64,000 nt of DNA, from NCBI GenBank assembly GCA_035275545.1, contig DATEMP010000272.1, positions 4,592 through 68,591 on the forward strand. The letters run 5' to 3'. A program made the position numbers and the translations under genes. Positions 12,467 to 31,746 of this stretch are shown in pieces (within the stretch, counting starts at the first letter, position 1; the number at the start of each line of letters is the position of its first letter). The DNA is from Candidatus Eiseniibacteriota bacterium. Lineage in GTDB: Bacteria > Eisenbacteria > RBG-16-71-46. The notes under the pieces are model-generated. The model saw only the letters and a program-made list of their open reading frames with translations, ran no database searches and was not told the DNA's origin.

Positions 12467-12548
<82 letters not shown>

Positions 12549-12588
12549 ACGATCGGCCAACGGGCTCTGTGCCGTCTCGTGTGCGGAT

Positions 12589-13644
12589 TCAGCCCTCGGA
12601 AGTGCGCTTCCCGAGCCTCTCGACCGCCTCGTTCAGGTCCGCCTCAGAGGTGATGTTGTACCTGTCGAAGATCGCGCGAGTCTTGTGGCCCGTGAGCTTC
12701 ATCGCCACCCGCTCGTCGATGTTGGCCCGGACGAGGTTCCGCACGGCCGTACGCCGGAAGTCGTGGACCAACTTGCCGGGCAGCTTGGCCTCCTTACAGG
12801 CAGCCTCCCACGCCTTACGGAACGTGCCGAGTTGGCTACCGTCGCTGCGCGGAAAAAGCCACGGAGTGCCACTGGCGAGGGCCCGCTCGCACTGGCGGAC
12901 GATCAGGACTCGGAGGGCCGGGTGGGCTGCGAAGGGGAAGCTCCGAGGCTCCTCATTCTTCGTCTCCCCTCTGTGGAGCAAGACCCTCGCGTTCTCGAAG
13001 TCGATGTGCTCTCGCAAAGTCAGTTGCCGCACCTCGCCAACACGCCACCCCGTGATGTACATGAACTCGACCGCCGGCCGCAGGTCCTCGGGCAGATGCG
13101 TCAGAAGCCGCTCGAACTGGTCAGGCTCGAAGAAGCCCTGTCGGGCGTTGCGGACGACGACTGTCGGTAGCGGCGGGACCGTCGCGAGCAGTTCGGCCTC
13201 CACTGCGAGCCGACACATGCGCCCCCAGATGACGAGTTCGTAGCGCACTGTGGCCGGACGTGCGCCCTCGGCGAGACGAGTGGTCACGTACTCCTTCAGG
13301 AGCCGATGGCTCACATCCACTGGGCGTAGCCGCTTGAACGCCTTACGAAGGTGCTTCACGCGGCCGAGCATGTCCTTCGTGGACTTGCGCTCGTTCGTCT
13401 TGTAGTCGGCCTCGATGAGGCGGACGAGGTCGTCGAAGGTGGTGCGCTCAATCTGGGGCCCGAGGACACGGCGCTCGATGACTTCGGTCCGGCGCTTCTC
13501 CAGCAAGGCGAGGGCAAGCTGCTGGTCGGTGGAGTGAGAGGACTCCCGATACTCGCGCCCGTTCACCGTGAACCGGATGTACCACACGCCTCTCCGGCAA
13601 TAGACCGACCCGAGCTTGGCGTCCTTCTTCTTACGGCGTGCCAT
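12589..13644 (-). CDS. int: Tyrosine-type site-specific integrase
   Basis: From the internal ATG (MARRKKKDAKLGSVY) the product has the AP2-like N-terminus of phage integrases. The C-terminal catalytic region has HDFRRT, LGH and YNITSE (R...HxxR...Y). Confidence 0.9.
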   Translation of the reverse strand: MARRKKKDAKLGSVYCRRGVWYIRFTVNGREYRESSHSTDQQLALALLEKRRTEVIERRVLGPQIERTTFDDLVRLIEADYKTNERKSTKDMLGRVKHLRKAFKRLRPVDVSHRLLKEYVTTRLAEGARPATVRYELVIWGRMCRLAVEAELLATVPPLPTVVVRNARQGFFEPDQFERLLTHLPEDLRPAVEFMYITGWRVGEVRQLTLREHIDFENARVLLHRGETKNEEPRSFPFAAHPALRVLIVRQCERALASGTPWLFPRSDGSQLGTFRKAWEAACKEAKLPGKLVHDFRRTAVRNLVRANIDERVAMKLTGHKTRAIFDRYNITSEADLNEAVERLGKRTSEG

Positions 13645-13884
13645 GTGTACTCCCGTCGTGCAAGATGTCGAGCGCGCACGTCCGGGTGGCGTTGGGTGGT
13701 CCGTCAATTCTACCGTGACCTGCGAGTCGCGCGCGAGGGCGATCGTCATTCTGAGAGCATCTACGGCGGTCGATTCTCACGCTGCACCCCGCTTTCGCCA
13801 CTTTCGGTCTCATGACCCCTGTCATCGGCCGGTTGTGCGCGGGGCTCAAGGCCGGCCGGCCAGCGAGGGCAAGTCGCGCCCGGC

Positions 13885-14037
13885 TCATTCGATTGCCTCG
13901 GCGTAGATGAAGTCGGCGTTGGGGAAGTACTCGTGCATGGAGAGGAGTAGGTGCCCGACTCCCTGACGCGTGGACAGCCTCCAATCCATGCGCGGGTAGC
14001 CCGGTCGTACGATCGTGACGCGCCACGTGGGGCTCAC
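13885..14037 (-). CDS. Small hypothetical protein (50 aa, GTG start)
   Basis: The last of four co-oriented small ORFs linked by GTGA/ATG-TGA overlaps. It sits inside a longer PR-rich frame that looks spurious. Confidence 0.25.
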   Translation of the reverse strand: MSPTWRVTIVRPGYPRMDWRLSTRQGVGHLLLSMHEYFPNADFIYAEAIE

Positions 14038-14246
14038 GCTGCCTCCACGGTGAAGCCGTCTTCGCGCATCCCAGCCACGAGGTTGAGGACGTAGCGGGGC
14101 TCGACTGCCAGCGCGCCCCCGAACCAAGTTCCGTCCGTGTGCTCCTTGAGCCACGCGGTTGCAGCGGCCGTCAGCGGCCGGACAAGCACCACGCTCCCGT
14201 GGCCATCGACTCGGGCGTCCGTGCGCGCCTTGCGGCGGGCACTCAC
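14034..14246 (-). CDS. Small hypothetical protein (~70 aa, GTG start)
   Basis: Member of the coupled small-gene chain beside the integrase. No recognisable motif. Confidence 0.3.
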   Translation of the reverse strand: MSARRKARTDARVDGHGSVVLVRPLTAAATAWLKEHTDGTWFGGALAVEPRYVLNLVAGMREDGFTVEAA

Positions 14247-14503
14247 ATGGCCTCCGCGTCGTCGTGGTGCGAGTAGATGAGGAGCGTCCCAACCGGGAAA
14301 CCGATGCCGGGCGTGAGGGTGGAGGGTTCGGCAAGCCACGCGGCCAGCGCGGACACGTGCTCGGGGGACGTGGCGAAGACGGTCTCGACGGACCCGCCAA
14401 CCGAGGGAACTTCCCGAACGAAGGCCGCAGGGATGCCACGGTCAGCGGCAGCGCGGCCGGCGGCGAAGCGGTCACCCTTGGCGACAGCGGAGATGTAGGC
14501 CAC
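14243..14503 (-). CDS. Small hypothetical protein (86 aa)
   Basis: Member of the coupled small-gene chain. Confidence 0.35.
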   Translation of the reverse strand: MAYISAVAKGDRFAAGRAAADRGIPAAFVREVPSVGGSVETVFATSPEHVSALAAWLAEPSTLTPGIGFPVGTLLIYSHHDDAEAM

Positions 14504-14506
14504 GGG

Positions 14507-14866
14507 TCACCCGACCTTCTGCGCGCACGCGCCGTTGAGGGCGAAGCCGTCCACGAAGTCCACGGCCTCGTGCCAGCGGCCGAACCGGGCAACCTTCCAC
14601 TCGCGCTTGACCGCGTAGACGCGCCAGCCGTGCGCGAGGGCCACCCGGTTGAGCCGGTCTTTCGTCGTGACCGTGTGCCACCCGCCCGTGTGGAGAGAGA
14701 TGCGGCCGTCCGGGTAGAAGCGGACAACGATCGTCGAGTGAAGCCGAAGGCCGATGCAGACGCCAAGGTCCGCGAGCGTGGTGTTGTTCGCGATGATGCG
14801 CGAGTCGCGCCCGTTGAGGGCTTCGAGTGCTTCCGCGTAGGTCGTCGGGATGTTGTTGCGTGACAC
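14507..14866 (-). CDS. Hypothetical protein (119 aa)
   Basis: First gene of the small minus-strand operon and its best-looking ORF. Confidence 0.4.
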   Translation of the reverse strand: MSRNNIPTTYAEALEALNGRDSRIIANNTTLADLGVCIGLRLHSTIVVRFYPDGRISLHTGGWHTVTTKDRLNRVALAHGWRVYAVKREWKVARFGRWHEAVDFVDGFALNGACAQKVG

Positions 14867-14955
14867 GTTGCCTCCGTCGTTGTCGTCGAGCGAGATTGCT
14901 TCGACGGAGGCGCATCACTTCACGGCGCGTGCCACGTTCGGACGTGTTCGCGAAC

Positions 14956-14972
14956 AATCGTGCAGCGAATTG
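14956..14972. promoter_or_regulatory. Inverted repeat GAATTGC-GGC-GCAATTC (candidate operator)
   Basis: Perfect 7-bp arms with a 3-nt spacer, in a ~550-bp low-coding spacer between the divergent small-gene operon and the res-mod operon. Confidence 0.25.
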
Positions 14973-15496
14973 CGGCGCAATTCCGTGCGAGGTTGTCAGC
15001 GAAGATGAACGCGAGAGGGCAAGCGTGTTTCGTGCGTGCGAATCGGGGCATCTCGCGCGGAGTGCTGCGCGAATCCGCACGACGATGAAGCCCCTCGCTG
15101 CTGCCTCGCGCGAAGGGGAACCGACGCGGGCGGAAACCGGAACCGTGCGGCAGGCGGCAATGAGAGAGGACGGGCGGGCGGGCGCGTCTTAGTCGCGGGC
15201 GCGGGCGCGTATGATTGACGCGTGGGTGCACGCGTGTGCGCGTCTTGTAGAGGGTGGGGGGACGACCCCAAGTGCGGAACGGCTCCCGCTGGGCATGGTC
15301 CGCGTCAGCGAAAACCTGACCCCTGTGCAAGCCCGCCCGGCTAGACGGAGGGGGTTCAACGTTTGATCTCAGAGCCTCCTGCCCGCACACGTATTCCTCT
15401 GCCTCGTACGACCTTGCGGTGCAGGTCCGAGACTGCGAGACTGCCACGGAAACCATTCACCCAACTGCAACTTCGTGGACTCCATGGAGCCCTGCC

Positions 15497-18484
15497 GTGG
15501 CCGATGTCGTCATCGAGAACCCGATCCTCAACTCCCCGTTCGAGGAACCCGGGCGGCACTTCAAGTTCACCGACGATGGCATCACCGACGAGGTCGTCGA
15601 GACCCGGCGCACCAGCTCCTACTTCGTCCCGATCCCGGCCGCCAAGAAGCGTGGCGGGCAGCTCGCGTTCGACACCGAGTGGACGAAGGACCGGATCGAG
15701 GAGAACCGGCAGATCAACCGCATCCGTGAGCGGGTCTCGCAGTGGCGCAAGGGCGGGCACGCGGGGAACCTGACTTCGACCACTCGTAGGCTGCTGGCCT
15801 ACTGGAGCGAGCCCGACCGCGAGAAGAAGCTGTTCTTCTGCCAGATCGAGGCGCTGGAGACTGCGATCTATCTCACCGAGGCGGCGAGGGAGTTCGGTGA
15901 CACGTGGATCGAGAACGAGCTGCGGCGAGGCAATGAAGACGCGAACCCGCTGCTGAACCGCATCGCCTTCAAGATGGCGACCGGGAGTGGAAAGACCGTC
16001 GTCATGGGGATGCTGATCGCGTGGCAGGCCCTCAACAAGCTCGCGAACCCGCAGGACGGCCGCTTCTCCGACGCCTTCCTGCTCATCACGCCCGGGATCA
16101 CCATCCGCGACCGGCTGCGCGTACTCCTGCCCAACGACCCGCAGAACTACTACCGCGAGCGCGACATCCTGCCCGGCGACCTGCTGATCGAGCTGGAGAA
16201 GGCCAAGATCAGCATCATCAACTTCCACAAGCTGAAACCACGCGAGAAGCAGGCAGTCAGCAAGTTGAACAAGAGCATCCTGCGCGCGGAGCAGACTGGG
16301 GCGTTCACCGAGACGCCGGATGAGATGGCCCGCCGCGTGTGCCGCGAGCTGGGGAACAAGAAGAACATCGTTGTGATCAACGACGAATCGCACCACTGCT
16401 ACCGCAGGCGGGTGGCAGAGGAGGACGGCGAGAAGCTCGTTGGGGACGACAGGCGGGAAGCCGAAAAGCGGAACGAGGAGGCGCGCGTCTGGATTTCCGG
16501 CATCGAGGCCATCAAGTCGAAGGTTGGCGTCAAGGTGGTCTACGACCTCTCCGCCACACCATTCTTCCTGCGCGGCTCTGGCTACTCGGAGGGCACGCTG
16601 TTCCCGTGGGTCGTATCGGACTTCTCCCTGATCGACGCCATCGAGTCCGGCATTGTGAAGGTTCCTCGCGTCCCGGTCGCGGACGACTCGGTCACGGGCA
16701 CGCAGCCGATCTACCGCGACATCTGGGTCCGTATCCGAGAAGCACTGCCCAAGAAAGGTCGAGGGAGCAACGAGCTGTCCGGCCCACCGGTCCTCCCTGC
16801 CGAGCTTGAAGGCGCTCTCCGCACTCTCTACGCCAACTACAAGAAGTACTACGAGAGCTGGGAGCAGGACGCAGAGTCCCGGGAGAAGGGCCAGACCCCG
16901 CCGGTCTTCATCGTCGTCTGTCAGAACACGAACATCTCGAAGCTGGTCTACGACTTCATCGCGGGCTGGGAGAAGAAGCTCGCTGACGGCAGTCCGGTGC
17001 TCGTTCCCGGGGCGCTGCCGATCTTCAGCAATGTTGCCGACGGGCAGTGGACCGTGCGGCCGAACACGATCCTCGTGGACAGCGAGCAGTTGGAGTCCGG
17101 TGAGGCCATGAGCGATGACTTCAAGAAGATCGCTGCCATCGAGATCGACGAGTTCAAGGCGGAGTACCGTCTGCGCTTCCCCGGCCGCGATGCCGACCAG
17201 CTCACCGACGAGGACCTCCTGAGAGAGGTCATGAACACCGTGGGCAAGCCGGGCAAGCTGGGCGAGGAGATCAAGTGCGTGGTCTCGGTGTCGATGCTCA
17301 CAGAAGGATGGGACGCGACCACCGTCACCCACATCCTCGGCGTCCGAGCGTTCGGTACGCAGCTCCTGTGCGAGCAAGTCGTGGGACGCGGGCTACGACG
17401 CCGACGGTACGTCGCCAACGCCGAGGGTAGGTTCGACCCCGAGTACGCCGAAGTGTTCGGGGTACCGTTCTCGTTCATCCCGTGCTCTGGCTCGGCTGCC
17501 AACCCGAAGCCGGGGCCGATGCCGACGCGGGTGCGGGCGCTTGAAGATCGCATCGCCTGCGAGATCACGTTCCCGCGCGTGACGGGCTACCGTTACGAGC
17601 TTCCTTCAGAGCGCCTCACTGTCACCTTCGCGGACGACTCGAAACTCGCCCTGACGACCGAAGATGTGGCGACCATCACCGAGAACGCTCCCATCGTCGG
17701 GCAGTCCACGTTTCACAACCTCGATGACCTGAAGGGACGCCGCGAGCAGGAGGTGGATTTCTGGCTCGCGAAGACGGTGCTAGAAGGCTATTTCGCAGAC
17801 CCCGAGGGCAACGTGAAACCGTGGCTGTTCCCGCAACTCCTCCTGATCGCCCGGCGATGGCGCAGCGAGTGCCTCCAGCTCAAGGACGACACGTTCCCTC
17901 AGCTCCTGCTCTTGCAAGAGCGCGCGAGGGAGGCCGCCGACCGCATCTACCACGCCATCGTCAGCTCGACCGAGGGCGAGAAACGGCTGAAGCCCATCCT
18001 ACGCCCCTACGACACGGTGGGCTCGACCCGACACGTGGACTTCGATACGACCCGTCCCGTGTACGTCACGCGCGCCGACAAGAGCCACGTCTCGCACGTC
18101 GTGGCCGACACCGAGTCGTGGGAGCAGAAGATGGCGCAGGGCCTGGAGGACATGGACGAGGTTGTCCACTACGTGAAGAACCAGAACCTCGGGTTCACGA
18201 TCCCTTACACGCTCGACGGGCAGGAGCGCGCCTACGTGCCGGACTTCATCGTGCATGTGGACGACGGCCACGGCCGCGAGGACCTGCTCAACCTGATAGT
18301 CGAGGTCAGCGGCGAGAAGAAGAAGGACAAGGCGGCGAAGGTCGCCACGGCGCGGAGCATGTGGGTCCCGGCGATCAACGCGCATGGCGGCGTCGGACGC
18401 TGGGCCTTCATCGAGGTCTCCGATCCGTGGGACGCCAAGAATACGATCCGCGCAGCGATCCAGTCGCCGACGACGGCCAGCTGA
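15497..18484 (+). CDS. res: Type III restriction enzyme Res-like subunit (SF2 helicase + C-terminal PD-(D/E)xK nuclease)
   Basis: Helicase motifs in order: FFCQIEALETAIYL (Q-motif region), ATGSGKT (I), VINDESHH (II, DExH), LSATPF (III), MLTEGWD (V), QVVGRGLRR (VI). The C-terminal PDFIVHVDDG...LIVEVSGEKK fits the PD-(D/E)xK pattern. A nuclease at the C-terminus means Type III Res rather than Type I HsdR. A GTG at 15497 is preferred because GGAG sits 7 nt upstream; the listed alternative is GTG 15419. Confidence 0.85.
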   Translation: MADVVIENPILNSPFEEPGRHFKFTDDGITDEVVETRRTSSYFVPIPAAKKRGGQLAFDTEWTKDRIEENRQINRIRERVSQWRKGGHAGNLTSTTRRLLAYWSEPDREKKLFFCQIEALETAIYLTEAAREFGDTWIENELRRGNEDANPLLNRIAFKMATGSGKTVVMGMLIAWQALNKLANPQDGRFSDAFLLITPGITIRDRLRVLLPNDPQNYYRERDILPGDLLIELEKAKISIINFHKLKPREKQAVSKLNKSILRAEQTGAFTETPDEMARRVCRELGNKKNIVVINDESHHCYRRRVAEEDGEKLVGDDRREAEKRNEEARVWISGIEAIKSKVGVKVVYDLSATPFFLRGSGYSEGTLFPWVVSDFSLIDAIESGIVKVPRVPVADDSVTGTQPIYRDIWVRIREALPKKGRGSNELSGPPVLPAELEGALRTLYANYKKYYESWEQDAESREKGQTPPVFIVVCQNTNISKLVYDFIAGWEKKLADGSPVLVPGALPIFSNVADGQWTVRPNTILVDSEQLESGEAMSDDFKKIAAIEIDEFKAEYRLRFPGRDADQLTDEDLLREVMNTVGKPGKLGEEIKCVVSVSMLTEGWDATTVTHILGVRAFGTQLLCEQVVGRGLRRRRYVANAEGRFDPEYAEVFGVPFSFIPCSGSAANPKPGPMPTRVRALEDRIACEITFPRVTGYRYELPSERLTVTFADDSKLALTTEDVATITENAPIVGQSTFHNLDDLKGRREQEVDFWLAKTVLEGYFADPEGNVKPWLFPQLLLIARRWRSECLQLKDDTFPQLLLLQERAREAADRIYHAIVSSTEGEKRLKPILRPYDTVGSTRHVDFDTTRPVYVTRADKSHVSHVVADTESWEQKMAQGLEDMDEVVHYVKNQNLGFTIPYTLDGQERAYVPDFIVHVDDGHGREDLLNLIVEVSGEKKKDKAAKVATARSMWVPAINAHGGVGRWAFIEVSDPWDAKNTIRAAIQSPTTAS

Positions 18485-18494
18485 GGGAACAGCC

Positions 18495-21203
18495 ATGCCA
18501 CTAAAGAAGCCACCGGGCCGGCCGAAGCCGGTAAAGAATGCGAAGACGGGTGTCACGTCGGTCAAACACAAGGACAAGCGGACCAACATCCCAACGCAGG
18601 AGCTAAGGGACTTCGTCGCCGAGGCCGAAACCCGCCCGAAGACGGTCCTCTACCCGCGCGATCCCTCGCTCGATCCTCAGCTCGTCTGGAAGGGCAAGGA
18701 CGAGCAGGACCAGCAGTCGCTCACGGTGCCTGCGGTTCCGGTCTACATCCAGGAGAAGATCCACCCGCAGGCGATCATCGAGGAGCTGCGCGCGCGCTCG
18801 GCAAGCGGAGCGGAACCACCCCTCGAACTGTTCGCCGACTTCAACGGGATCGCGTTCGAGCAGCTCGTGGACTTCTACCATCACGAGCAGAACTGGGCGA
18901 ACCGCATGATCCTCGGCGACTCGCTACTGGTGATGACCTCCCTCGCCGAGAAGGAGGGGCTCAAGGGCAAGGTCCAGACGATCTACTTCGACCCGCCCTA
19001 CGGGATCAAGTTCGGCTCGAACTGGCAGGTGAGCACGCGGAAGCGGGACGTGAGAGACGGCAAGGTCGAAGATGCCACGCGGCAGCCTGAGCAGATCCGC
19101 GCGTTCCGCGACACGTGGAAGCTCGGCATCCATTCGTACCTCGCCTACATGCGAGACCGGCTCATGGCGGCGCGTGACCTGCTCACGGAGACGGGCAGCC
19201 TCTTCGTCCAGATGGGTGACGAGAACATCCATCTTGTCCGTGCGGTCTTGGACGAGGTCTTCGGAAGCGAGGACTTCGTGGCACTGATCTCGTTCAAGAA
19301 GACTGGGTACCAAGCCAGTGCTCTTCTACCGAGCAACTTCGACTTCATCCTCTGGTACGCCAAGCACCGCGATCAGGTCAAGTTCCGCCAGCTACACGTC
19401 TCGAAGCTCACAAGCTCCGCGTTTGTTGGTCAAGACCTGTGGCTTGAACTGCTGGACGGAACTCGTCGCAGGTTGAGTTCGGAGGAGAGCGAGGATCTGG
19501 AGTCTGTCCCCGACGGTGGCCGCGTCTTCCGACACAAGCTGGCCGAGTCTGCCGGAGCTGCTTCCGTACGGCAGCCTTTCGAGTTCCACGGTCGGACCTT
19601 CGAGCCGAAGGATGGCAAACACTGGTCCACTACGATCGACGGCCTGCGGCGCCTTGTCGTGGCCAACCGGTTGATGGTGATCGGGAAGTCACTACGATAC
19701 GTGAACTACCTCGCTGACTTCCCCGTGACGCCACTTACGACGAACTGGACGGACACCGTGGTGAGCGGCTTCTCGGACCCGCAGAGGTACGTGGTTCAGA
19801 CGAGTCTGAAGGTTGTCGAGCGGTGCGTGCTCATGACCACCGACCCCGGCGATCTTGTGCTTGACCCGACCTGCGGCAGCGGCACGACGGCCGTCGCTGC
19901 AGAGCAGTGGGGACGACGCTGGATCACGATCGACACGAGCCGCGTGGCCCTCGCGCTCGCGCGCACCCGTCTGATGGCCGCTCGCTACCCGTACTACCTA
20001 TTGGCCGACTCACCCGAGGGACTCCGCAAGGGGGCCGAGATCACGGGGCGGGTTCCGCCCGAGCACCGAACCGACGGGGACATCCGCAAGGGCTTCGTGT
20101 ACGAACGTGTCCCGCACGTCATGCTCAAATCCATCGCGAACAACCCGGACATCAGAGAGGGCATGTCACGCGAGCAGATCGACGCGGCCATCGCCCGCCA
20201 CGCGGAGACCGAGATCCTCTTTGACCGGCCCTACGAAGACTCAAAGCGCATCCGCGTCAGCGGCCCGTTCACTGTCGAGAGCCTCTCCCCCCACCGTGTG
20301 CTCGCGACCGACGACGAGCACCCAGGTTCCGAGACGAGCCAGCACGACGGCGGTCCCCCGTTCGAGACCACGATCCTGGAGAACCTGAAGAAGGCTGGAG
20401 TCCAGAACACCTTCAAGAACGAGCGGCTGGTCTTCGAGCGGATTGAACCGTTCGCGGGTACGTGGATTCACGCGCAGGGCTTCTACACCGACAAGCTCGG
20501 CGGCTCGAAGCGCGTGGCCATCTCCATCGGCCCCGAGCACGGCACGGTCGGCCCCGAACAGCTCAAGGAGGCCGCGAAGGAGTCCATCAAGGGTGTCGGC
20601 TTCGACATGATCGTGGTCTGCGGCTTCGCGTTCGATCCACACGTCTACGAGACCGCCAAGCAGATCGAGCCGGACGCGACAGCGGGCGACGGTACCCGCA
20701 AGGTTGCCGAGCCGGGCACGCAGTACGGGCGCCTCCCGGTGCTGCTGGCGCGCATGAACCCAGACCTTCTCAACGACGACCTGCTCAAGAAGACGGGCGC
20801 AGGGAACCTCTTCATGGTCTTCGGCGAGCCCGAGATCAAGCTCGACCGCGAGAAGGACGGCAAGTGGACCGTGACCCTCAAGGGGCTCGATGTCTACGAC
20901 CCGACGACGGGCGAGGTCCGCAACTCCTCGACCGACGACATCGCGTGTTGGTTCATCGACACGGACTACAACGGCGAGAGCTTCTTCGTCAGGCACGCCT
21001 ACTTCACGGGCGCCGAAGAGCCGTACGAGAGGTTGCAGCGGGCGCTGCGAGCGGAGATCGACGAGGCGGCGTGGTCAACGCTCTACTCGACGAAGAGCCG
21101 GCCCTTCGAGCAGCCGAAGAGCGGGAAAGTCGCGATCAAGGTCATCAACCACTACGGCGACGAGGTCCTGAAGGTCGTCGAGCTAGTCTCGGGTCGGAAG
21201 TAG
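18495..21203 (+). CDS. mod: Type III Mod-like N6-adenine/N4-cytosine DNA methyltransferase (beta class) with ~400-aa C-terminal extension
   Basis: IYFDPPYG (motif IV, DPPY) precedes VLDPTCGSGTTAVAA (motif I) by ~300 aa, which is the beta-class order with an intervening target-recognition region. The N-terminus is basic and AT-hook-like (KKPPGRPKPVKNAK). The ATG has GAGGGA 6 nt upstream. The product is 902 aa, whereas a canonical Type III Mod is about 650 aa. Confidence 0.9.
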   Translation: MPLKKPPGRPKPVKNAKTGVTSVKHKDKRTNIPTQELRDFVAEAETRPKTVLYPRDPSLDPQLVWKGKDEQDQQSLTVPAVPVYIQEKIHPQAIIEELRARSASGAEPPLELFADFNGIAFEQLVDFYHHEQNWANRMILGDSLLVMTSLAEKEGLKGKVQTIYFDPPYGIKFGSNWQVSTRKRDVRDGKVEDATRQPEQIRAFRDTWKLGIHSYLAYMRDRLMAARDLLTETGSLFVQMGDENIHLVRAVLDEVFGSEDFVALISFKKTGYQASALLPSNFDFILWYAKHRDQVKFRQLHVSKLTSSAFVGQDLWLELLDGTRRRLSSEESEDLESVPDGGRVFRHKLAESAGAASVRQPFEFHGRTFEPKDGKHWSTTIDGLRRLVVANRLMVIGKSLRYVNYLADFPVTPLTTNWTDTVVSGFSDPQRYVVQTSLKVVERCVLMTTDPGDLVLDPTCGSGTTAVAAEQWGRRWITIDTSRVALALARTRLMAARYPYYLLADSPEGLRKGAEITGRVPPEHRTDGDIRKGFVYERVPHVMLKSIANNPDIREGMSREQIDAAIARHAETEILFDRPYEDSKRIRVSGPFTVESLSPHRVLATDDEHPGSETSQHDGGPPFETTILENLKKAGVQNTFKNERLVFERIEPFAGTWIHAQGFYTDKLGGSKRVAISIGPEHGTVGPEQLKEAAKESIKGVGFDMIVVCGFAFDPHVYETAKQIEPDATAGDGTRKVAEPGTQYGRLPVLLARMNPDLLNDDLLKKTGAGNLFMVFGEPEIKLDREKDGKWTVTLKGLDVYDPTTGEVRNSSTDDIACWFIDTDYNGESFFVRHAYFTGAEEPYERLQRALRAEIDEAAWSTLYSTKSRPFEQPKSGKVAIKVINHYGDEVLKVVELVSGRK

Positions 21204-21206
21204 TTG

Positions 21207-21452
21207 ATGCGGTTCACCACGCTGAGCTCGAAGACTCCAGAAGTCTTCGTCGAGCTTCGCCCCTCGGCCGACGGCTGCTACTTCTCCGCTCGCATCGAAG
21301 GAGCGCCCGACCGGCTCCCTCGCATCTTCGTGGGCGTTCTCGGCTCCCGCGATGAGGCCATCTCCCAGGCCACGCGCTGGGCGCTCGGCTGGCTGCAGAG
21401 GCTGCGAGGGCACCGCTGTCCATCAGGGGCGCAGCGATCTGTATGGCCGTGA
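21207..21452 (+). CDS. Small hypothetical protein (81 aa)
   Basis: Starts 4 nt after the mod stop and overlaps the SIR2 gene start by 10 nt. No recognisable motif. Confidence 0.4.
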   Translation: MRFTTLSSKTPEVFVELRPSADGCYFSARIEGAPDRLPRIFVGVLGSRDEAISQATRWALGWLQRLRGHRCPSGAQRSVWP

Positions 21453-22528
21453 TCGTTCTTGGAGCAGGCGCGACACGAGGCGCTTCGTTCGTGACAGCGG
21501 CCGCCGGATCAAGGCGGGTGTGCCTCCCGCCGCTTGACGGCGACTTCTTCACCCAGTTGCAGCGTGTAGGTAAGCCTTTGCACCAGGGGACCATCAACGA
21601 TGTGATCAGCAGCGCGGTCGGGCTCTTCGGGGCGAACTTCCGCGTCACGCTGGAGACGATGTTCACTACGGTCGAGCAACTCGCCGCCATGAGCGGCATG
21701 CGCCCATCAGGCGGGAAGCAGGAACGCAGGCGCTTCCAGCGGATGAGAACCTGTCTACTCCAGGCGCTGGCCGGGGTGCTGGAGGAGTCACTCACCGAGC
21801 ACGCTGAGGCTACGACAGGGTCATCCTCCCCTGCGTCGGGTACGGGCTACGCGCTGCGCACCTGCCGCTTCCACCAGAAGATCGTCGAGTCGCTGGCCTA
21901 TTCCGACAGCGTGATCAGTTTGAACTACGACTGTCTCGTCGATGTCGCACTGCGCGACCACGGGCACGGCCGGTGGAACGCGCGCTACGGCTACTGCCTA
22001 CCGATGCAGCCCGTGGGCGAGGGCGCATGGAACCCAGACCCTCCCGCGAGCCGAGGGCGGAGCATCAGTCTGTTCAAGCTGCACGGCTCGCTCCACTTCG
22101 GCAAGCACAGGAGGAACGTGCTCCGGCTGAAGGCGCGCCCCTACAGCCACATGAAGAAGAACCAGGTCTTGCAGTTCGAGATCATCCCGCCGGAGTCCCA
22201 GAAGCGCCTCACGGATCCCACCTTCCGCCACATCTGGTCTGGCGCAGGGACTGCCCTACAGAAGACGAGGACGCTCGTCTTCATCGGGTACTCGTTCCCT
22301 CCCGGCGACGTTCACACCGCGGCCTTCTTCCGACTGCGCGGGACCGGGCGCGCTGCACCCAAGCTGCGGAACCTCGTGGTCGTGAACCCGGACCGCGAGG
22401 CCCGGCACCGCACCGTAGACATCATGCGCGCCTCGATGGACCGAAAGACCCGCGTCCTGGTGTTCGACACCCTCGAAGAGTTCTCCTACGTGCCGCGCGC
22501 GCTCTGGGACAGCGGGAGGCCCAAGTGA
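21443..22528 (+). CDS. SIR2-like domain protein (SIR2_2-type, putative NAD+ hydrolase/effector)
   Basis: N-terminal VIVLGAGATRGASF matches the GAGxS Rossmann start. NYD near residue 163 and LHGS near residue 207 have the Asn/His spacing of Sir2 catalytic residues. There is no Zn-ribbon module, so this is the defence-associated SIR2 type. Confidence 0.75.
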   Translation: MAVIVLGAGATRGASFVTAAAGSRRVCLPPLDGDFFTQLQRVGKPLHQGTINDVISSAVGLFGANFRVTLETMFTTVEQLAAMSGMRPSGGKQERRRFQRMRTCLLQALAGVLEESLTEHAEATTGSSSPASGTGYALRTCRFHQKIVESLAYSDSVISLNYDCLVDVALRDHGHGRWNARYGYCLPMQPVGEGAWNPDPPASRGRSISLFKLHGSLHFGKHRRNVLRLKARPYSHMKKNQVLQFEIIPPESQKRLTDPTFRHIWSGAGTALQKTRTLVFIGYSFPPGDVHTAAFFRLRGTGRAAPKLRNLVVVNPDREARHRTVDIMRASMDRKTRVLVFDTLEEFSYVPRALWDSGRPK

Positions 22529-23181
22529 CTCCAGCAAGCAGGAAGCGGCTGTCGTTGAAGGGGCTCGCCGACTACATGACCGCGTCGCACAGGAAGCAGC
22601 GCGCGATCCTCCACTCCTACAAGTACCCAGACGAGGACGAGTCGCAGGCGAAGATCCTGTACTACCGCGAGGCGCGCGACCGCATCTTGGCCCTCCACAA
22701 GTCGGCGCATCAGCCAGCGTGGCTCCAGAGTGAGGCCCTACAACTGGAGTCGGTGGCCGCTCACGCCACCGACGCGGCGTCGCGCCGACTCATCAACAAC
22801 GCCAGAGCGCTGGTGAGCTACGCGACCCACTTCGGGAACCGGGTGTTCAAGATCCTGGATGAGGCGCACATGACCCTCACAATCGCGGGCGTCGTGATCA
22901 CCGTGCGTCCAGACATGCACGTCGAGGAGAAGCGCGCGGAGCGGCTGATCAAGCTGGAGTTCGGAGTCGAGCCACTGGCCCCAACAGCCATCCGCATCCT
23001 GACGCAGACGATGTACGAGGCCGCTCGCAACTCGGGCATGAGCATCAAGTCGAAGGACGTGCTGTGCTTCGATGTCACCAGGGGCAAGGTCCACGCCGCA
23101 GGAACGCGGATGGGTCCACGGCTGAAGGGTGAGATCAAGGCCGCCTGCCAGAACATCGCCTCGATCTGGGATGGTATCTGA
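22525..23181 (+). CDS. Hypothetical protein (218 aa), SIR2 partner
   Basis: The GTG start overlaps the SIR2 stop as GTGA; an alternative ATG lies at 22576. No recognisable domain. It sits inside a longer 402-aa frame whose upstream part is antisense garbage. Confidence 0.5.
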   Translation: MTPASRKRLSLKGLADYMTASHRKQRAILHSYKYPDEDESQAKILYYREARDRILALHKSAHQPAWLQSEALQLESVAAHATDAASRRLINNARALVSYATHFGNRVFKILDEAHMTLTIAGVVITVRPDMHVEEKRAERLIKLEFGVEPLAPTAIRILTQTMYEAARNSGMSIKSKDVLCFDVTRGKVHAAGTRMGPRLKGEIKAACQNIASIWDGI

Positions 23182-23187
23182 GCAGCG

Positions 23188-23814
23188 ATGGCACTCGAAC
23201 CAATCCAGGAACTGGTGAGGCTCGTCCTTGAGGCCGAGGGCTACTTCGTCCGCAACAACGTGCGCTACCGCATCGAGACCGCGACGAAGAAGGAGGGCGG
23301 GAAGTCGGCGGCGTACTCGGACATCGACATCCTCGCGGTGAAGATCGACCCGAAGAGCGGGTCGGTCGTGGACCGCCTCTGGGGCGAGACGAAGGGTCAC
23401 CTCACCTCGTCCCTCACGGGCGGCTACCTCCGGGCGTTCGCGCCGGACTACGCGGTGCTCCTCGGCGACGGCGCGTGGTCGGATGCCGGTTTGGCGAAGA
23501 AGCACGGGGGGAAGCTGGAGACTCTCAAGATCAGGCGCTCGCGCGCCAGGGCGAGGGCGGTGCAGGTGCTTGGGGAGCCCTTCCGGCGCGTCCTCTACTT
23601 CGGCGGGCGGAGGCCGAAGGACGGCGGCAAGGAAGCGCGGGCACTCCTCGACCCAGAGGTGGAACTCGTCTACGTCCGGGACGTCGTGAGGAAGTGGATC
23701 GGCACGCTCACGCACCTTGAGGGGAATGAGGATGTGGTTCGGGTCATCAACGCCCTCGCGGAGTACGGGTTGATCCGTGTCGCGGACCAGAAGGAGACTC
23801 TCGCTGGTCGGTAA
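23188..23814 (+). CDS. Putative PD-(D/E)xK-fold nuclease-like protein (208 aa)
   Basis: The N-terminal EAEGYFVRNNVRYRIE...YSDIDILAV...GETKGH fits a restriction-endonuclease-like core (hydrophobic strand-D ... D ... E-x-K). It begins 7 nt after the previous gene. Confidence 0.45.
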   Translation: MALEPIQELVRLVLEAEGYFVRNNVRYRIETATKKEGGKSAAYSDIDILAVKIDPKSGSVVDRLWGETKGHLTSSLTGGYLRAFAPDYAVLLGDGAWSDAGLAKKHGGKLETLKIRRSRARARAVQVLGEPFRRVLYFGGRRPKDGGKEARALLDPEVELVYVRDVVRKWIGTLTHLEGNEDVVRVINALAEYGLIRVADQKETLAGR

Positions 23815-23846
23815 TCCTTGCGAGTAGTAGCCGGCAGGAGGATGCG

Positions 23847-24521
23847 ATGGCGATTCACGATGACGAACTGTCGATGCTCAGGGAGTCACTGCCCGAGTAC
23901 GTACGGCTTGCGCGGTTGGGCATCGAGTTCAAGAAGGACAACGGCGGTGCCTTGGGCTATCCGGCGGCAACGCTGCTGTTCGCGGTCGTGGACACGATCG
24001 GGAGCCACCTGCGCAAGCGCGCGGGGCTCGAACCGTACACGGTGACCGTGGGCGGGCAACAGCAGCCCATCAAGAAGACCGCGCACCACTTCCTCGTGCT
24101 GAACAGTCCATACTTCGGCATGGACCTCAGCGCGACCGAGATCGAGAGGTTATACGACTTGAGCCGGTGCCCGCTGACGCACAACGCACTTCTCGGGCTC
24201 GGCGTCCGGCTCACCGTGGAACAAGCGATCCCGAACGTCATCGAGTTCCGAGAGGGGATCGCCACTATCTCCCTACCTGACTTCCTCAAGCGGTGCGAGC
24301 AAGCCATCGAACGGTTCCTCGCGGAGGCCGAGAAGATCGTCGCCGAGTCGGCGGCCGTGGATGAACTCCGGAAGGAGTCGTACGCGCGCGTGAACGCTGA
24401 GGCGATCAAGAAGCTGGAGGAGCTTGCGAGGTCTGGCAACTGGGGGCAGTCGGCCCAGGCGTCCGGGATGGGGAGGCCGAATCGGATTGGAACGTCGGAC
24501 CCAACAAGGAGACCCCGCTGA
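23847..24521 (+). CDS. Hypothetical protein (224 aa)
   Basis: Last gene of the plus-strand cluster. Largely helical with no recognisable motif. Confidence 0.45.
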   Translation: MAIHDDELSMLRESLPEYVRLARLGIEFKKDNGGALGYPAATLLFAVVDTIGSHLRKRAGLEPYTVTVGGQQQPIKKTAHHFLVLNSPYFGMDLSATEIERLYDLSRCPLTHNALLGLGVRLTVEQAIPNVIEFREGIATISLPDFLKRCEQAIERFLAEAEKIVAESAAVDELRKESYARVNAEAIKKLEELARSGNWGQSAQASGMGRPNRIGTSDPTRRPR

Positions 24522-24606
24522 TCGTGGTGACCAACGGGGCTCGACTCGCAGGCGAACGGGCGTGACCAAGAGCCCAGGGCCACGATGGAGTATACGAGAC
24601 CTGCAA

Positions 24607-25437
24607 TCAGGGACTGGTCCCCGAACCTGTGCAGGACACCGTAGCTCCCCAACCAAGGTCCAACGTGCAATCACGCTGCCCGGTGGCGGTTGGTGTGAAG
24701 CGTACGATGAAGACGATCGTGCCCCCAAGCAGGTAACTAGCTTCTCCCCCGGGCACCGGGTTGCCATTCATGTAGACGATGCGGAAGTCGGGACAGGGCG
24801 ACGACACTGTGCCCGTTAGTTCGCATCCGCTTTCGTTCCTCAACTGGAAGGACATGTCCACACTCGATCCCAGTGGGACGCTCCCGAAGTCCAGAGCGTT
24901 GGGGACCGTGGAGACCCGCGGCGTGCATACCACAACGTCAGGGGGCCAATGAGCGGTGGAGGGATAGCTGTTCATCGCACTCATGATCCTCCCCGGCCCA
25001 AGGATGATCGTTGCAGGAACGCACTGGCAATCGACGGGTTGCTCCTCGCACGTGTGAGGCCAGACGCGAGCAAGTGAATCTCGCGGAGGATACGTGTACG
25101 AGGTATCAACGCCATACCCATCCGCATTGCTCCTGATGACCCGGATTGTGAGGGGCAGATTGCTGTCGAAGGTTCGCTGGAAGTCTCGCCACTCACAGAA
25201 TGTGGGTGGGCGATTGTTGTTGTCGAGCACAAAGCTATCCCTTGCTGCACCGGAAAGGATGACGGTCCACTTGGGGTAGGAGTAGTTGCAATCTCCCTGC
25301 CCAATGTCCTCGTTCCACGAGAACGTGACCCTGCTAGTGCTGGCCGGCGGTGGCCCGCTCTCAGTGGGGGCTGTCTTATTGCCGCATCCCGCCGCGCAGA
25401 GGGCGACGAGGCACACGGTGAAGGCGAACGACCGCAT
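24607..25437 (-). CDS. Lipoprotein (hypothetical, Cys-rich)
   Basis: Signal peptide with a lipobox (LVALCAAGCG) and many paired Cys. Convergent with the plus-strand cluster. Confidence 0.55.
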   Translation of the reverse strand: MRSFAFTVCLVALCAAGCGNKTAPTESGPPPASTSRVTFSWNEDIGQGDCNYSYPKWTVILSGAARDSFVLDNNNRPPTFCEWRDFQRTFDSNLPLTIRVIRSNADGYGVDTSYTYPPRDSLARVWPHTCEEQPVDCQCVPATIILGPGRIMSAMNSYPSTAHWPPDVVVCTPRVSTVPNALDFGSVPLGSSVDMSFQLRNESGCELTGTVSSPCPDFRIVYMNGNPVPGGEASYLLGGTIVFIVRFTPTATGQRDCTLDLGWGATVSCTGSGTSP

Positions 25438-25584
25438 CGACGGCTCCTCCCTCTGATCGCCCCAGGCAGGGCGGACACGTGCGGCAGGGAATCAGATCGA
25501 GGCGAGTTATCGGCGGGGCGCACGAGGCGCTTGAGGGCACGGAGAGGACCTTCCGGCCAGATCGCGCTGCGGGATGCTCGCAGC

Positions 25585-26052
25585 TCATGACTCGTCGCCG
25601 TCGAGCGCGTCGAAGACTTCGTCCGGGTCAGCGCCCACGATCTCGCACGCGGCGGTCACGCCATCTCGAAAGCACGGGCAGTCGGTGCAGGACTCGATGA
25701 CTTCCTCCGGGTGTTGCTCAGCGAGCTGCTCTGCACCCCCGGTGTGGCCTTCGGTGCCGGCGGTGAGCGTGGCGATCATGTTGGACGCGATCACATCGCG
25801 GCGTCGGGCGAGAAGCGCCTCCTCGATGCTATGTTGGATCGCTAGAATGTCCGCGTCAGGACCGTGCTGCTGGCGAAGGCGGTGCAGGCTGTATAAGGCG
25901 CTCAAGCGCCCTGCCCTGAAGCCGTCGTTGCCGAGGTCGCTCTCCTCCCCCGTTCGCAGCCGCCGCGCGAGCGCGGGGTCGAAGCTGGCGAGCCAGAGGA
26001 GGAACCCACTCTCTGTCGGGTCCGGTGACGGGGTCGGGATCGGGGCGATCAC
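25585..26052 (-). CDS. Hypothetical protein (155 aa)
   Basis: First listed ORF of the minus-strand island block; it contains a CxxC pair (SCTDCPC). Confidence 0.4.
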   Translation of the reverse strand: MIAPIPTPSPDPTESGFLLWLASFDPALARRLRTGEESDLGNDGFRAGRLSALYSLHRLRQQHGPDADILAIQHSIEEALLARRRDVIASNMIATLTAGTEGHTGGAEQLAEQHPEEVIESCTDCPCFRDGVTAACEIVGADPDEVFDALDGDES

Positions 26053-26339
26053 TGTCGCCTCCGAAGACCGGCCTTCGCGAACAGAGATTGGACCCCGTAG
26101 GCGAGGCGGGCTGCGAGTGCATCGTCGGTGAGACGCTCGTCGGTTCGGAGGGCGTCGAGTTCGGCGATGAACTCCCTCGCTTCGACTTCGGACAGAACGG
26201 GGTAGCCGAAGCTGCTCAGGGTCGCCGCGATCACGATGTACGCAGCTGCCTGCTCGGCGAGAGCGGACTGGCGTGCGAGGTTCGTCGGCGCAGTCGAAAG
26301 CATCGAGGGCGCGACGGGGATTGCGGTGGGCTTGCTCAT
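26049..26339 (-). CDS. Hypothetical protein (96 aa)
   Basis: Coupled to its neighbours by a 4-nt overlap. Confidence 0.4.
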   Translation of the reverse strand: MSKPTAIPVAPSMLSTAPTNLARQSALAEQAAAYIVIAATLSSFGYPVLSEVEAREFIAELDALRTDERLTDDALAARLAYGVQSLFAKAGLRRRQ

Positions 26340-26533
26340 GACTTCACCTCCAGCTTGCGGACGTTGATCGCCCTGTTCATGTTGCTCGGGAGCGCCTCGA
26401 TGTCGAACTCGATGTGGTCACCCTTGCTGAGGCCGCCAACCTGCGAGTGGGGCAGGTAGATGTCGCCGCTGCCGTCGTCGGCGATGACGAAGCCGTAGCC
26501 CTGTGCGGCGACCAGTTTGACGATGCCGGTCAC
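26336..26533 (-). CDS. Cold-shock domain protein (CspA family)
   Basis: 65 aa; GIVKLVAAQGYGFVIADDGSGDIYLPHSQV matches the RNP1/RNP2 region of the cold-shock domain. Confidence 0.7.
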   Translation of the reverse strand: MTGIVKLVAAQGYGFVIADDGSGDIYLPHSQVGGLSKGDHIEFDIEALPSNMNRAINVRKLEVKS

Positions 26534-26886
26534 GACTCGTCACTCCTGCGAAGGAAGGCCCGATCCGCGTCCGTCAACTCAGGGTTGGCGGCGATGAAGG
26601 CTTCCGTTGCTTCGCGTGCTGCCTGCTTGCGTGCTTCGGGCGTGGACAGGTCGCCGAGGCGCTCCGCTTCACGGGAGGTGATGGCGGCCACTGCTCCCTC
26701 GATGCCGTTCGCGATCCGCGCGAAGGTCGGCAGAAGGGGCAGGCCGTCACGCCCGAGTGACACGGGCTTCACCAGCGGCTTGGCTGGCGGTGCGGGCTTG
26801 GGGGCGGGTGTGGGCTCAATGGGTGGCGGGGGTGGTACGGAACGTCCTGCGCCGAATCCAGAACCGTACGGCATGAATGTGCTCAT
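26530..26886 (-). CDS. Hypothetical Pro-rich protein (118 aa)
   Basis: Coupled ORF; PPPPPIEPTPAPKPAPPAKP low-complexity linker followed by a helical C-terminus. Confidence 0.35.
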   Translation of the reverse strand: MSTFMPYGSGFGAGRSVPPPPPIEPTPAPKPAPPAKPLVKPVSLGRDGLPLLPTFARIANGIEGAVAAITSREAERLGDLSTPEARKQAAREATEAFIAANPELTDADRAFLRRSDES

Positions 26887-26941
26887 TGTGATGTTCCCCT
26901 TGTACTGCTGATGGTTGGATGGTGATGGGGCGAAAGGTGGG

Positions 26942-27508
26942 CTACTTCTTGTCGCGCTTCCTTGCGTTGCGACGTTGCTGCGCGAGCATGCGTTTGCGGG
27001 ATGCGGGATCTGCGGCAGCCAGGCGCTCCTCGAACTGGGCCTGCTTGACTGCGCGTGCCCTGCTCATCGACGCACGCTTCTCGGTGAGTTCGGCATCGCG
27101 CTCTGCGTGCTTGGCCTCTGCTACTTCTGCACGGTACCGCTGCGCGAGGTCGAAGCCGGCGGCCGACAGGCTGTTGATCCCGAGAAGGTCGACCTCGTCT
27201 GCTTTGTTGGCGAGCCAGTCGGCGATCTGCGCGAGCGTGTACGTCGAGGTCCACCAGTCGCGGAGCCGGTCGCTGCCGATCTCGCGGACGAAGTCCCTCG
27301 CGATTTCTTCCTCACGAGAGAGCTTCTCGGCAGCAGGGTTGTTCGCGGTCGAGGGGCTGGCGTGCGGTTCGTCGTCGCGTTCGCGGGCCCAGAGGAATGG
27401 GCGCACGAGGCTCGCTGTCGCGGGGTGCAGCCCGGCGAGGTCGCGACGATGCAGCTTGCCGTGGATCGCGCGGTTGATCAGGTCGTGGATGTTCTGTTCG
27501 TTCTTCAT
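26942..27508 (-). CDS. Hypothetical protein (188 aa)
   Basis: Charged, helical ORF; no motif recognised. Confidence 0.4.
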   Translation of the reverse strand: MKNEQNIHDLINRAIHGKLHRRDLAGLHPATASLVRPFLWARERDDEPHASPSTANNPAAEKLSREEEIARDFVREIGSDRLRDWWTSTYTLAQIADWLANKADEVDLLGINSLSAAGFDLAQRYRAEVAEAKHAERDAELTEKRASMSRARAVKQAQFEERLAAADPASRKRMLAQQRRNARKRDKK

Positions 27509-31500: not shown

Positions 31501-31557
31501 AAACTGACTCTTAATCAGTAGGTTGAAGGTTCGATTCCTTCGCGGCGCACCAACTTA
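31501..31557 (+). repeat. attR (second copy of tRNA-Lys 3' half, 57 bp)
   Basis: Identical to 12492-12548; the preceding bases differ from the tRNA sequence. Confidence 0.8.
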
Positions 31558-31746
31558 CCTCTCATCACCACCTGCTTTGTCGGCAGCGTCACAGCTGGTG
31601 ATTCAACCCGGGTGACGCTCCAACGGGTCGGAAGCTCGGCACCCTGAGTAGGGCAACGGACGGCGGGTGACGCTTCGGACGATCGGAGTCGTGGGGCTTC
31701 TTCGGTTCGATGACGGAGCCGCCTCCCTCCGCACCAACCGGCTGCG

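Follow-up and report, generated by a model that had tools for sequence, protein, structure and literature searches.

[quoted passage not shown] We examined the pair and its surroundings in the window, i.e., the whole 64,000-nucleotide stretch of DNA that was analysed.

The gene pair and its Res subunit

The two genes and their junction were placed as follows.
15497..18484, + strand: res, for a putative helicase-nuclease subunit of 995 aa (BPTD_3080 family); GTG start at 15497, TGA stop at 18482-18484
18483..18494, + strand: res-mod junction, with a GAGGGA Shine-Dalgarno-like run at 18483-18488 that overlaps the res stop, then the gap (read from the sequence)
18495..21203, + strand: mod, for a beta-class amino-methyltransferase of 902 aa (long Type III Mod family); ATG start at 18495

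The pair described in the initial annotation was recovered in full, with a Res of 995 aa, a Mod of 902 aa, a gap of exactly 10 nt (18485-18494), and every quoted motif present in the translations. Both starts were supported by homologs, which open with M-x-x-VVIENPILNSPF (Res) and with MP-KK... (Mod) at the same points, and GC3 was 0.84-0.87 in both frames. Res and Mod each aligned with their homologs from end to end; therefore, neither is truncated. The 10-nt gap, which had been taken to imply co-translation, supports co-transcription of res and mod, and translational coupling is possible; however, tight coupling is not required by the family because 44 of 69 relatives carry genes between the two. 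A promoter and terminator scan around the operon gave nothing exceeding shuffled expectation. No simple repeats suited to phase variation were found at res-mod, and phase variation of the pair was rejected on that account.

Translation of res located all of the motifs attributed to it (ATGSGKT, DESHH, TEGWD, QVVGRGLRR, and PDF...EVSGEKK) at these positions.
15977..16396, + strand: motif I ATGSGKT (aa 161-167) and motif II DESHH (aa 296-300)
17294..17401, + strand: motifs V-VI, MLTEGWD ... QVVGRGLRR (aa 600-635), with TEGWD at 602-606 and QVVGRGLRR at 627-635
18083..18340, + strand: PD-(D/E)xK-type nuclease-like domain (aa 863-948), with PDF at 915-917 and EVSGEKK at 936-942

A helicase family outside R-M systems had been considered as another possible identity of Res. 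Instead, the protein was a full-length match to the NCBIfam equivalog NF046055, "BPTD_3080 family restriction endonuclease" (1199 bits against a curated cut-off of 800 bits; residues 6-987 versus profile positions 1-969 of 970), and Pfam ResIII matched residues 116-355 with 41.5 bits (cut-off 22.5). Motifs I, II, V, and VI were invariant among 25 family members from two clades, including residues G163, G165, K166, T167, D296, E297, H299, and H300, and D916 and E936 were invariant in the family alignments. Nothing credible was found in Pfam at E<=10 for residues 1-116 and 650-862. These features suggest that Res carries an SF2 ATPase of the ResIII type and, behind it, a C-terminal PD-(D/E)xK-type domain, in the domain order of EcoP1I Res.

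The nuclease-type domain was the more divergent part of this comparison. Pfam RE_endonuc gave it 18.9 bits, under the cut-off of 23.4, and matched 12 of 17 close homologs weakly; two proteobacterial family members reached the cut-off (23.6 and 23.5 bits), and P1 Res matched at 88 bits in the same C-terminal position as the family members. The position of the ExK lysine is Ser/Thr in the clade of the window's Res (E-V-S here), whereas the proteobacterial clade retains E-I-K. Because this lysine is replaced in the clade and the Pfam nuclease score lies under its cut-off, the nuclease activity of Res is putative. Alignment of Res profiles with canonical EcoP1I (P1) Res by hhalign was confined to motifs V-VI (residues 589-635 versus 492-538; probability 64%, E 6e-5). 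Searches of the PDB returned no significant match, whether with the single sequence or with profiles built from 17 sequences, from 25 sequences of two clades, or from the nuclease domain only; T7 endonuclease I, at E 0.4, was dismissed as noise.

These results bear on an alternative in which Res is a helicase-like accessory ATPase, not a nuclease, and the pair is a methyltransferase-translocase system that interferes with DNA without cutting or uses a nuclease encoded elsewhere. The model for such a protein is the extra ATPase of Type III systems of the Eco86II/BspHIV group, encoded on the 5' side of mod (PMC8259958). The 995-aa gene holds the same position, its product resembles canonical Res in motifs V-VI only, the ExK lysine is absent in its clade, and the Pfam nuclease score is sub-threshold. 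The Eco86II/BspHIV version, however, is reported to have no PD-ExK motif and to accompany a separate Res always (PMC8259958), whereas no third conserved gene was detected here among the downstream flanks of 57 related loci and the upstream flanks of 51. Moreover, the PD and E residues do not vary, E-I-K is retained in the proteobacterial clade, which attains the RE_endonuc cut-off where P1 Res is matched strongly, and the NCBIfam curators call the family a restriction endonuclease. We regard a purely accessory Res as improbable.

The Mod subunit

Five features were distinguished in Mod.
18495..18584, + strand: basic, disordered N-terminal tail (aa 1-30), with PPGRPKP (pLDDT 31-34)
18990..19001, + strand: catalytic motif IV DPPY (aa 166-169), from the translation
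19302..19814, + strand: variable target-recognition domain (TRD; about aa 270-440), from column conservation
19863..19889, + strand: AdoMet-binding motif I DPTCGSGTT (aa 457-465), from the translation
19983..21200, + strand: conserved C-terminal module (aa 497-902), from conservation; without a Pfam or PDB match

The order of the motifs, with DPPY preceding DPTCGSGTT, agrees with the earlier assignment of Mod as a beta-class amino-methyltransferase, and Pfam N6_N4_Mtase matched residues 160-487 at 104 bits (cut-off 26.7). The best PADLOC model was MTase_III PDLC03632 (983 positions; 871 bits, E 3.5e-262). In an alignment of 22 sequences, D166, P167, P168, Y169, and the DPTCGSGTT columns were invariant. 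Among 120 homologs, column conservation was 0.28-0.45 in the TRD compared to 0.8-0.93 in the flanking core, and rapid variation in Mod is confined to this central domain.

Profile comparison of Mod with the PDB identified EcoP15I Mod (4zcf, 6.4e-23, positions 114-461) and the Mod of 6k0w (4e-25). We used an AF2 model made from 37 aligned sequences, among them representatives of 41-54% identity (pTM 0.79), and set aside an earlier model from 22 close homologs (pLDDT 50.8). The best Foldseek matches of the model were EcoP15I Mod (4zcf_A, 8.5e-19), 6k0w, and 7dsu, all of which are Type III Mods. The superposition on EcoP15I Mod had a high rmsd and low TM scores (0.27/0.37), which a model with several domains would be expected to give, and the match is not proof of an equal quaternary design. 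Taken together, the sequence profile and the predicted fold indicate that the N-terminal ~500 aa of Mod are homologous to Type III Mods (EcoP15I, Mbo45V).

The N-terminus had been described as AT-hook-like. PPGRPKP is indeed present, and a basic tail is common to the family (median K/R content of homolog tails, 32%), but the tail reads P-G-R-P without the first Arg of the AT-hook core R-G-R-P, and GRP was found in the tail of only 1 of 118 Mod homologs. We rejected the AT-hook as a functional feature. Residues 1-135 gave nothing credible in Pfam at E<=10.

The C-terminal extension of ~400 aa proved to be real. Residues 497-902 had no Pfam match even at E<=10 and no PDB sequence match by profile search; in Foldseek searches of PDB and BFVD with the whole of Mod, the best 50 matches of each were all methyltransferases, in an output that does not state the aligned residues. 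The module was modelled as folded (mostly pLDDT 70-90), had conservation values of 0.67-0.91 except in two linkers (120 homologs), was present in 4850 representative clusters, and formed the C-terminal end of every full-length (~830-1057 aa) protein among the matches listed. As the most conserved part of Mod outside the catalytic core, it is not a lineage-specific addition. We infer that the module is a structural component that the holoenzyme always contains; it would most plausibly serve as a platform that holds the divergent Res or as an extra DNA clamp. The sensor or second-activity role suggested initially is speculation, and a sensor is unlikely because nothing co-varies with the module, whose conservation nearly equals that of the catalytic core.

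Family, island, and proposed function

Mod belongs to a family of >8000 homolog clusters with lengths of 863-942 aa that align end to end (97-100% coverage). Members with 60-78% identity occur in Acidobacteriota, Chloroflexota, Planctomycetota, Nitrospirota, Cyanobacteriota, and Actinomycetota; the family is present in no fewer than 582 species genomes, and the cultured carriers include Picosynechococcus PCC 7002 (plasmid pAQ5), Pseudomonas avellanae, and Burkholderia. The source annotations of relatives read "type III restriction enzyme". We collected 80 related loci and scored gene order in the 69 with enough upstream DNA. In all 69, which represent many phyla, res preceded mod on one and the same strand, and the Res homologs were 63-74% identical; the same order was seen in annotated plasmids of Picosynechococcus, Pseudomonas, and Rhodococcus. 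The res-first order that had been regarded as atypical is what this family invariably shows. Similarly, Mod does exceed EcoP15I Mod (644 aa, PDB chain) by ~250 aa, but such a length is the family norm (about 870-940 aa). Because both the gene order and the ~900-residue methyltransferase are the norm, the locus is ordinary: on sequence grounds, the pair is a regular member of a widespread, already curated Type III-like family (NF046055; PDLC03632). The initial reading as a two-gene Type III-like R-M pair was thus upheld by the PADLOC, NCBIfam, and Pfam matches, whereas its atypical status was not.

Between res and mod, 44 of the 69 relatives contain 0.6-3.7 kb of other genes, which are unrelated defence or toxin genes. 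The presence of such genes at this site in two-thirds of relatives could be a marker for new defence genes.

Few R-M lineages of environmental bacteria are as widespread or as strongly conserved as this family, and PDB profile searches and the literature provided no biochemically characterised or structurally solved member. We found no paper on "BPTD_3080" or on systems in which res precedes mod. The methylome of PCC 7002, a carrier of the family, includes the asymmetric motifs TGG(6mA)GG and CCC(4mC)GC, which are not assigned to an enzyme and serve as a lead only (PMC12362590); the PCC 7002 methylome papers tie neither to the pAQ5 enzyme. Bpe564I (AGCCGCC), a putative m4C Type III enzyme (PMC8259958), has a possible link to the Bordetella namesake of the family, and we found no tie between the B. 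pseudomallei Type III motif CACAG and the BPTD_3080 family.

The surroundings of the pair in the window contain the following elements.
12467..12542, + strand: tRNA-Lys(CTT), the island integration site (attL), detected by ARAGORN
12589..13749, - strand: tyrosine integrase of the island (Pfam Phage_integrase, 77 bits)
21443..22528, + strand: SIR2_2-domain gene, 239 nt downstream of mod
31502..31558, + strand: attR, an exact 57-nt repeat of the tRNA-Lys 3' part (12492-12548)

The exact repeat delimits an island at about 12549-31558 (19 kb), in which the neighbours of the pair are the integrase, the SIR2 gene, and unknowns. Near 12 kb, at the left boundary formed by the tRNA, the GC content dropped to about 0.64 from 0.70; the attR repeat was not marked by any shift, and values of about 0.63-0.68 persisted to roughly 46 kb. 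We consider it probable that the pair is an intact two-gene R-M operon from a large family of Type III architecture, horizontally acquired on this 19-kb tRNA-Lys island in Candidatus Eisenbacteria.

The position of the SIR2_2 gene, on the same strand and close behind mod, could point to a composite defence in which Res, Mod, and the SIR2-domain protein act together and the restriction or methylation status triggers NAD+ depletion; relatives of the pair often have other defence genes inside or beside the operon. A homolog of the SIR2 protein was nevertheless encoded in none of the 80 related loci, and the downstream genes differed from locus to locus (the largest cluster spanned 3 of 57 loci), a pattern that fits a defence island and not a fixed system. 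We rejected the composite system, to which we assign hardly any likelihood.

The mobility of the locus invites a further alternative, namely that selfish stabilisation of the island is the main role of the pair, or that the pair works as an epigenetic methyltransferase with a disused Res, instead of an active barrier to phage. The pair rides on an integrase-bearing tRNA island, the family was found on 49 plasmids, 17 of them conjugative, and Type III mod genes can turn into regulators, as in phasevarions (PMC3874151). Opposed to this, Res is full length with all of its ATPase and nuclease-type invariants intact, the locus has no simple repeats for phase variation, and the 63-74% identity that Res keeps across phyla argues for selection on its function; furthermore, stabilisation and defence can coexist. 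We consider this alternative unlikely.

By analogy, ATP-dependent Type III-like R-M remains the most likely function of the pair. As inferred from Type III enzymes, a Mod dimer would recognise a short asymmetric site via the TRD and methylate one strand of it, forming m6A or m4C; the DPPY motif does not settle which. Res would dock on Mod, with ATP acting as the switch to quit the site and travel along the DNA, and the meeting of complexes would lead to cleavage of unmodified foreign DNA. Cleavage of the Type III kind depends on ATP and on both Mod and Res, and usually on a pair of unmodified sites in inverse orientation. The res-first order would be tolerable because Res without Mod cannot find DNA targets. 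More tentatively, and with greater doubt than confidence, the family may be viewed as a mechanistically distinct Type III-like subtype, in which the Mod module would have a new function (Res docking, DNA clamping, or a second activity), the res-mod junction would be a recurrent slot for co-expressed cargo (unrelated toxin, Abi, or defence genes), and the window copy would be a minimal, cargo-free version. The window's locus is itself a routine R-M pair on a mobile island, both proteins of which are already named in public annotation; the large conserved module in Mod could matter at the level of the family.

Comparison with known systems

BREX (PglX) and DISARM (DrmMI) share with this locus a large methyltransferase that adjoins a helicase-like gene in a defence island, and the initial annotation had singled them out for comparison. 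The PADLOC score of Mod with MTase_III far exceeded that of the next best model (121 bits), neither PglX nor DrmMI was among the best 25 models, and no PglZ, BrxC, or Drm partner genes were conserved near the related loci. We rejected a BREX or DISARM identity for the pair.

Among Type III systems, some DPPY-type Mods make m4C, and some require Res to methylate (PMC8259958). Certain m4C or three-gene variants resemble the present locus in having a helicase-like gene 5' of mod; however, these variants keep the mod-then-res order and add an ATPase that lacks a nuclease motif (PMC8259958), whereas two conserved genes are found here and the 5' gene encodes a putative nuclease-type domain.

Like EcoP1I and EcoP15I (PDB 4zcf), the pair comprises two subunits, a beta-class Mod with an internal variable TRD and a Res (995 versus 970 aa) with an N-terminal ResIII ATPase and a putative C-terminal RE_endonuc-type domain. 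It differs in that the genes are arranged as res-then-mod, whereas mod is upstream of res in P1 and its counterparts; in that Mod continues for about 400 more conserved residues at its C-terminus, a region that those enzymes lack; and in that Res has diverged so far from EcoP1I that only motifs V-VI align. The mod-then-res order is a habit of classical Type III systems and not a defining feature.

The NF046055 relatives on plasmids of Picosynechococcus PCC 7002 (pAQ5), Pseudomonas avellanae (p1NCPPB4222), and Rhodococcus DN22 (p4) match both proteins end to end at 46-68% identity, with the res-then-mod order and similar sizes as in the window; the methyltransferase that adjoins an NF046055 Res is annotated as "site-specific DNA-methyltransferase" and has ~870-960 aa. 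The intergenic gap is 1 nt for the Pseudomonas pair and 17 nt for the Rhodococcus pair; in PCC 7002, two small genes lie between res and mod. Nothing essential differs between the window copy and these relatives; its particulars are GRP in the Mod tail, S at the ExK position (as in most of its clade), and a res-mod junction free of cargo.

A res-first pair of a curated family

The interval 15497-21203, in a window with a GC content of 0.63-0.71, was filled by two long open reading frames (GC3 of 0.84-0.87):

15497-18484, + strand: res, GTG start at 15497, TGA stop at 18482-18484, 995 aa
18495-21203, + strand: mod, ATG start at 18495, 902 aa

The Res start was backed by homologs that open with M-x-x-VVIENPILNSPF at the same residue. 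A longer mod reading frame from 18384, overlapping res, was not supported because the homologs open with MP-KK at 18495. The two genes are separated by exactly 10 nt, and the res stop codon is overlapped by a GAGGGA run. All Res and Mod motifs quoted in the initial annotation were found in the sequence, and its recognition of an R-M pair from two ORFs, a 10-nt gap, and these motifs was correct. No phase-variation repeats were detected at the pair, and a promoter and terminator scan around the operon gave no informative match.

Res matched NCBIfam NF046055 ("BPTD_3080 family restriction endonuclease") with 1199 bits (cut-off 800 bits) over profile positions 1-969 of 970, as a full-length member, and also contains a Pfam ResIII domain. 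Residues 160-487 of Mod form a Pfam N6_N4_Mtase domain. Mod was further matched in two stretches (871 bits) by PDLC03632, a PADLOC model of Type III methyltransferases; as this model spans 983 positions, the long form of Mod is already covered by that collection's models for this enzyme type. When 5.8 billion proteins were searched, at least 8000 matches to Mod were returned, including one protein from a Candidatus Eisenbacteria MAG at 100% identity; the best 120 were 863-942 aa in length, were 63-78% identical, and covered 97-100% of Mod. The window pair is a newly found member of an already known, curated family, for which no experimental paper was found in the literature.

A scan using one genome per species revealed relatives in at least 582 species, and 80 loci were fetched. 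Among the 69 loci with enough upstream DNA to count gene order, every one (69/69) has mod preceded, in the same orientation, by a gene for a Res homolog (63-74% identity). The same order is shared by annotated plasmids of Picosynechococcus PCC 7002, Pseudomonas avellanae, and Rhodococcus, with Mod proteins of 937, 959, and 911 aa, respectively. Within this family, the res-first order and the ~900-aa Mod, both initially regarded as atypical, are thus the norm and no oddity of the window locus. Clustering of the flanking ORFs of the related loci revealed no further gene conserved with the pair: at most 6 loci shared a cluster, and this largest cluster included the window's own upstream ORF.

Possible junction cargo and the integrative island

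The res and mod genes are adjacent in 18/69 related loci, as in the window, and are separated by 0.6-3.7 kb in 44/69. The inserted genes are unrelated and mostly on the same strand (e.g., L003:7883-10000, L001:1196-4881, and L026:8234-10000). Their families include DUF5131 (6), AAA_15/AAA_21 ATPases (6), GmrSD (3), DUF3800 (3), Fic (2), HepT (2), and PIN (2), along with IS200, AIPR, YhcG, and DUF559; the junction on plasmid pAQ5 of PCC 7002 holds UPF0175 and DUF3368 genes (L081:9112-9856). The junction appears to serve as a recurrent slot for cargo within the operon; the window locus is the compact 10-nt form without cargo. The genes directly 3' of mod are variable too, at times overlapping its stop codon, as illustrated by two plasmid loci:

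L083:12968-15061, Pseudomonas avellanae plasmid: 697-aa "3'-5' exonuclease" directly after mod
L081:12717-14591, Picosynechococcus PCC 7002: 624-aa hypothetical protein directly after mod

The 3' end of the operon may be a further attachment point for accessory genes.

The surroundings of the pair in the window contained the following features:

12467-12542: tRNA-Lys(CTT)
12589-13749, - strand: tyrosine integrase, next after the tRNA
14507-14866, - strand: small ORF of 119 aa between the integrase and res, matching Pfam Kyano_Gp96, a cyanophage protein family (30 bits, cut-off 27)
21443-22528, + strand: SIR2_2-domain protein of 361 aa, 239 nt downstream of mod (PADLOC SIR2 models, E 2.6e-10)
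23188-23814 and 23847-24521: two ORFs after the SIR2 gene, no family match
27611-29185, - strand: AAA_25 (RepA/primase-helicase-like) protein of 524 aa

The 57-nt 3' part of the tRNA has an exact copy at 31502-31558, 19 kb downstream, and the GC content falls from 0.70 to about 0.64 near 12 kb, where the tRNA marks the left boundary. Together with the integrase, these features place the R-M pair on a ~19-kb integrative island, which also carries the SIR2 and AAA_25 genes; proteins of the latter type are typically found in the replication or mobilisation modules that integrative elements carry. A degenerate third copy of the repeat (39 nt, 2 mismatches) is located another 19.6 kb on, at 51148-51186, and along with the exact copy points to a tandem pair of integrative islands at a single tRNA. 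The GC content stays at about 0.63-0.68 until roughly 46 kb, across both proposed islands. The SIR2 gene had no counterpart in any of the 80 fetched loci; it therefore probably represents an independent defence gene carried by the island.

Constant and variable parts of Mod

Column conservation across 120 homologs was 0.8-0.93 for the catalytic core; between motifs IV and I, residues ~270-440 scored 0.28-0.45. Such variability is what a specificity-determining target-recognition domain (TRD) would show. The long C-terminal region noted initially (residues 497-902) is a genuine part of the protein: it is predicted to fold and shows high conservation (0.67-0.91, two linkers excepted). When used as the sole query, the C-terminal 403 aa matched 4850 representative clusters, and the module sits at the C-terminal end of every full-length protein (~830-1057 aa) among the matches listed. 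It had no match in Pfam, even at E≤10, or by sequence in the PDB, and the best Foldseek matches listed for Mod were methyltransferases only. Because the module is constant while the TRD varies, we infer that it might be fixed machinery, for Res docking or as a DNA clamp, rather than a sensor.

The N-terminal tail of Mod was modelled as disordered (pLDDT about 33). Homolog tails are all basic (median 23 aa, 32% K/R), and a GRP core occurs in 1/118, namely the window protein, where the first Arg of RGRP is missing; the AT-hook proposed earlier is incidental and no family feature.

Proposed activity and comparison with classical Type III enzymes

The best-supported reading of the pair is a Type III-like, ATP-dependent R-M system. 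By analogy with classical enzymes (PMC3874151, PMC8259958), from which we infer all biochemical steps, Mod would bind an asymmetric site and methylate one strand, and Res would provide both the ATP switch and the nuclease. The DPPY motif is also carried by published m4C Type III Mods (PMC8259958), so the modified base is not callable from the motif. Methylation depends on Res in some published Type III systems (PMC8259958), a dependence that may have a bearing on an operon in which res comes first. A family member is present in a model cyanobacterium, on pAQ5 of PCC 7002 (L081:5989-12673). The nanopore methylome of this organism includes asymmetric TGG(6mA)GG and CCC(4mC)GC motifs with no enzyme assigned (PMC12362590); both are candidate products of the pAQ5 Mod.

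The Mod family profile matched the solved structures of EcoP15I Mod (4zcf, 6.4e-23, positions 114-461) and the 6k0w Mod (4e-25). These two and Mbo45V Mod were the best PDB matches of the AF2 model (37-sequence alignment, pLDDT 73.7, pTM 0.79). In contrast, Res is far more divergent from the classical enzymes: it matched no solved structure by single sequence or by profile, and hhalign aligned only motifs V-VI with P1 Res. The two proteins nevertheless appear to have a common domain order, ResIII followed by a RE_endonuc-type C-terminus, which is putative in the window Res. Residues 849-954 of P1 Res match Pfam RE_endonuc with 88 bits (cut-off 23.4 bits); at the matching C-terminal position, proteobacterial members scored 23.6 and 23.5 bits, the window Res a sub-cut-off 18.9 bits, and 12/17 close Res homologs matched weakly. 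The PD (915-916) and E936 residues of Res are invariant. The ExK position reads E-I-K in the proteobacterial clade (L083:9575-10084) and E-V-S/T followed by a lysine-rich stretch in the window's clade (Res aa 936-942, window 18302-18322), where the catalytic lysine may have migrated. The apparently shared domain order, the weak RE_endonuc signal, and the invariant PD and E936 make a nuclease function of Res likely.
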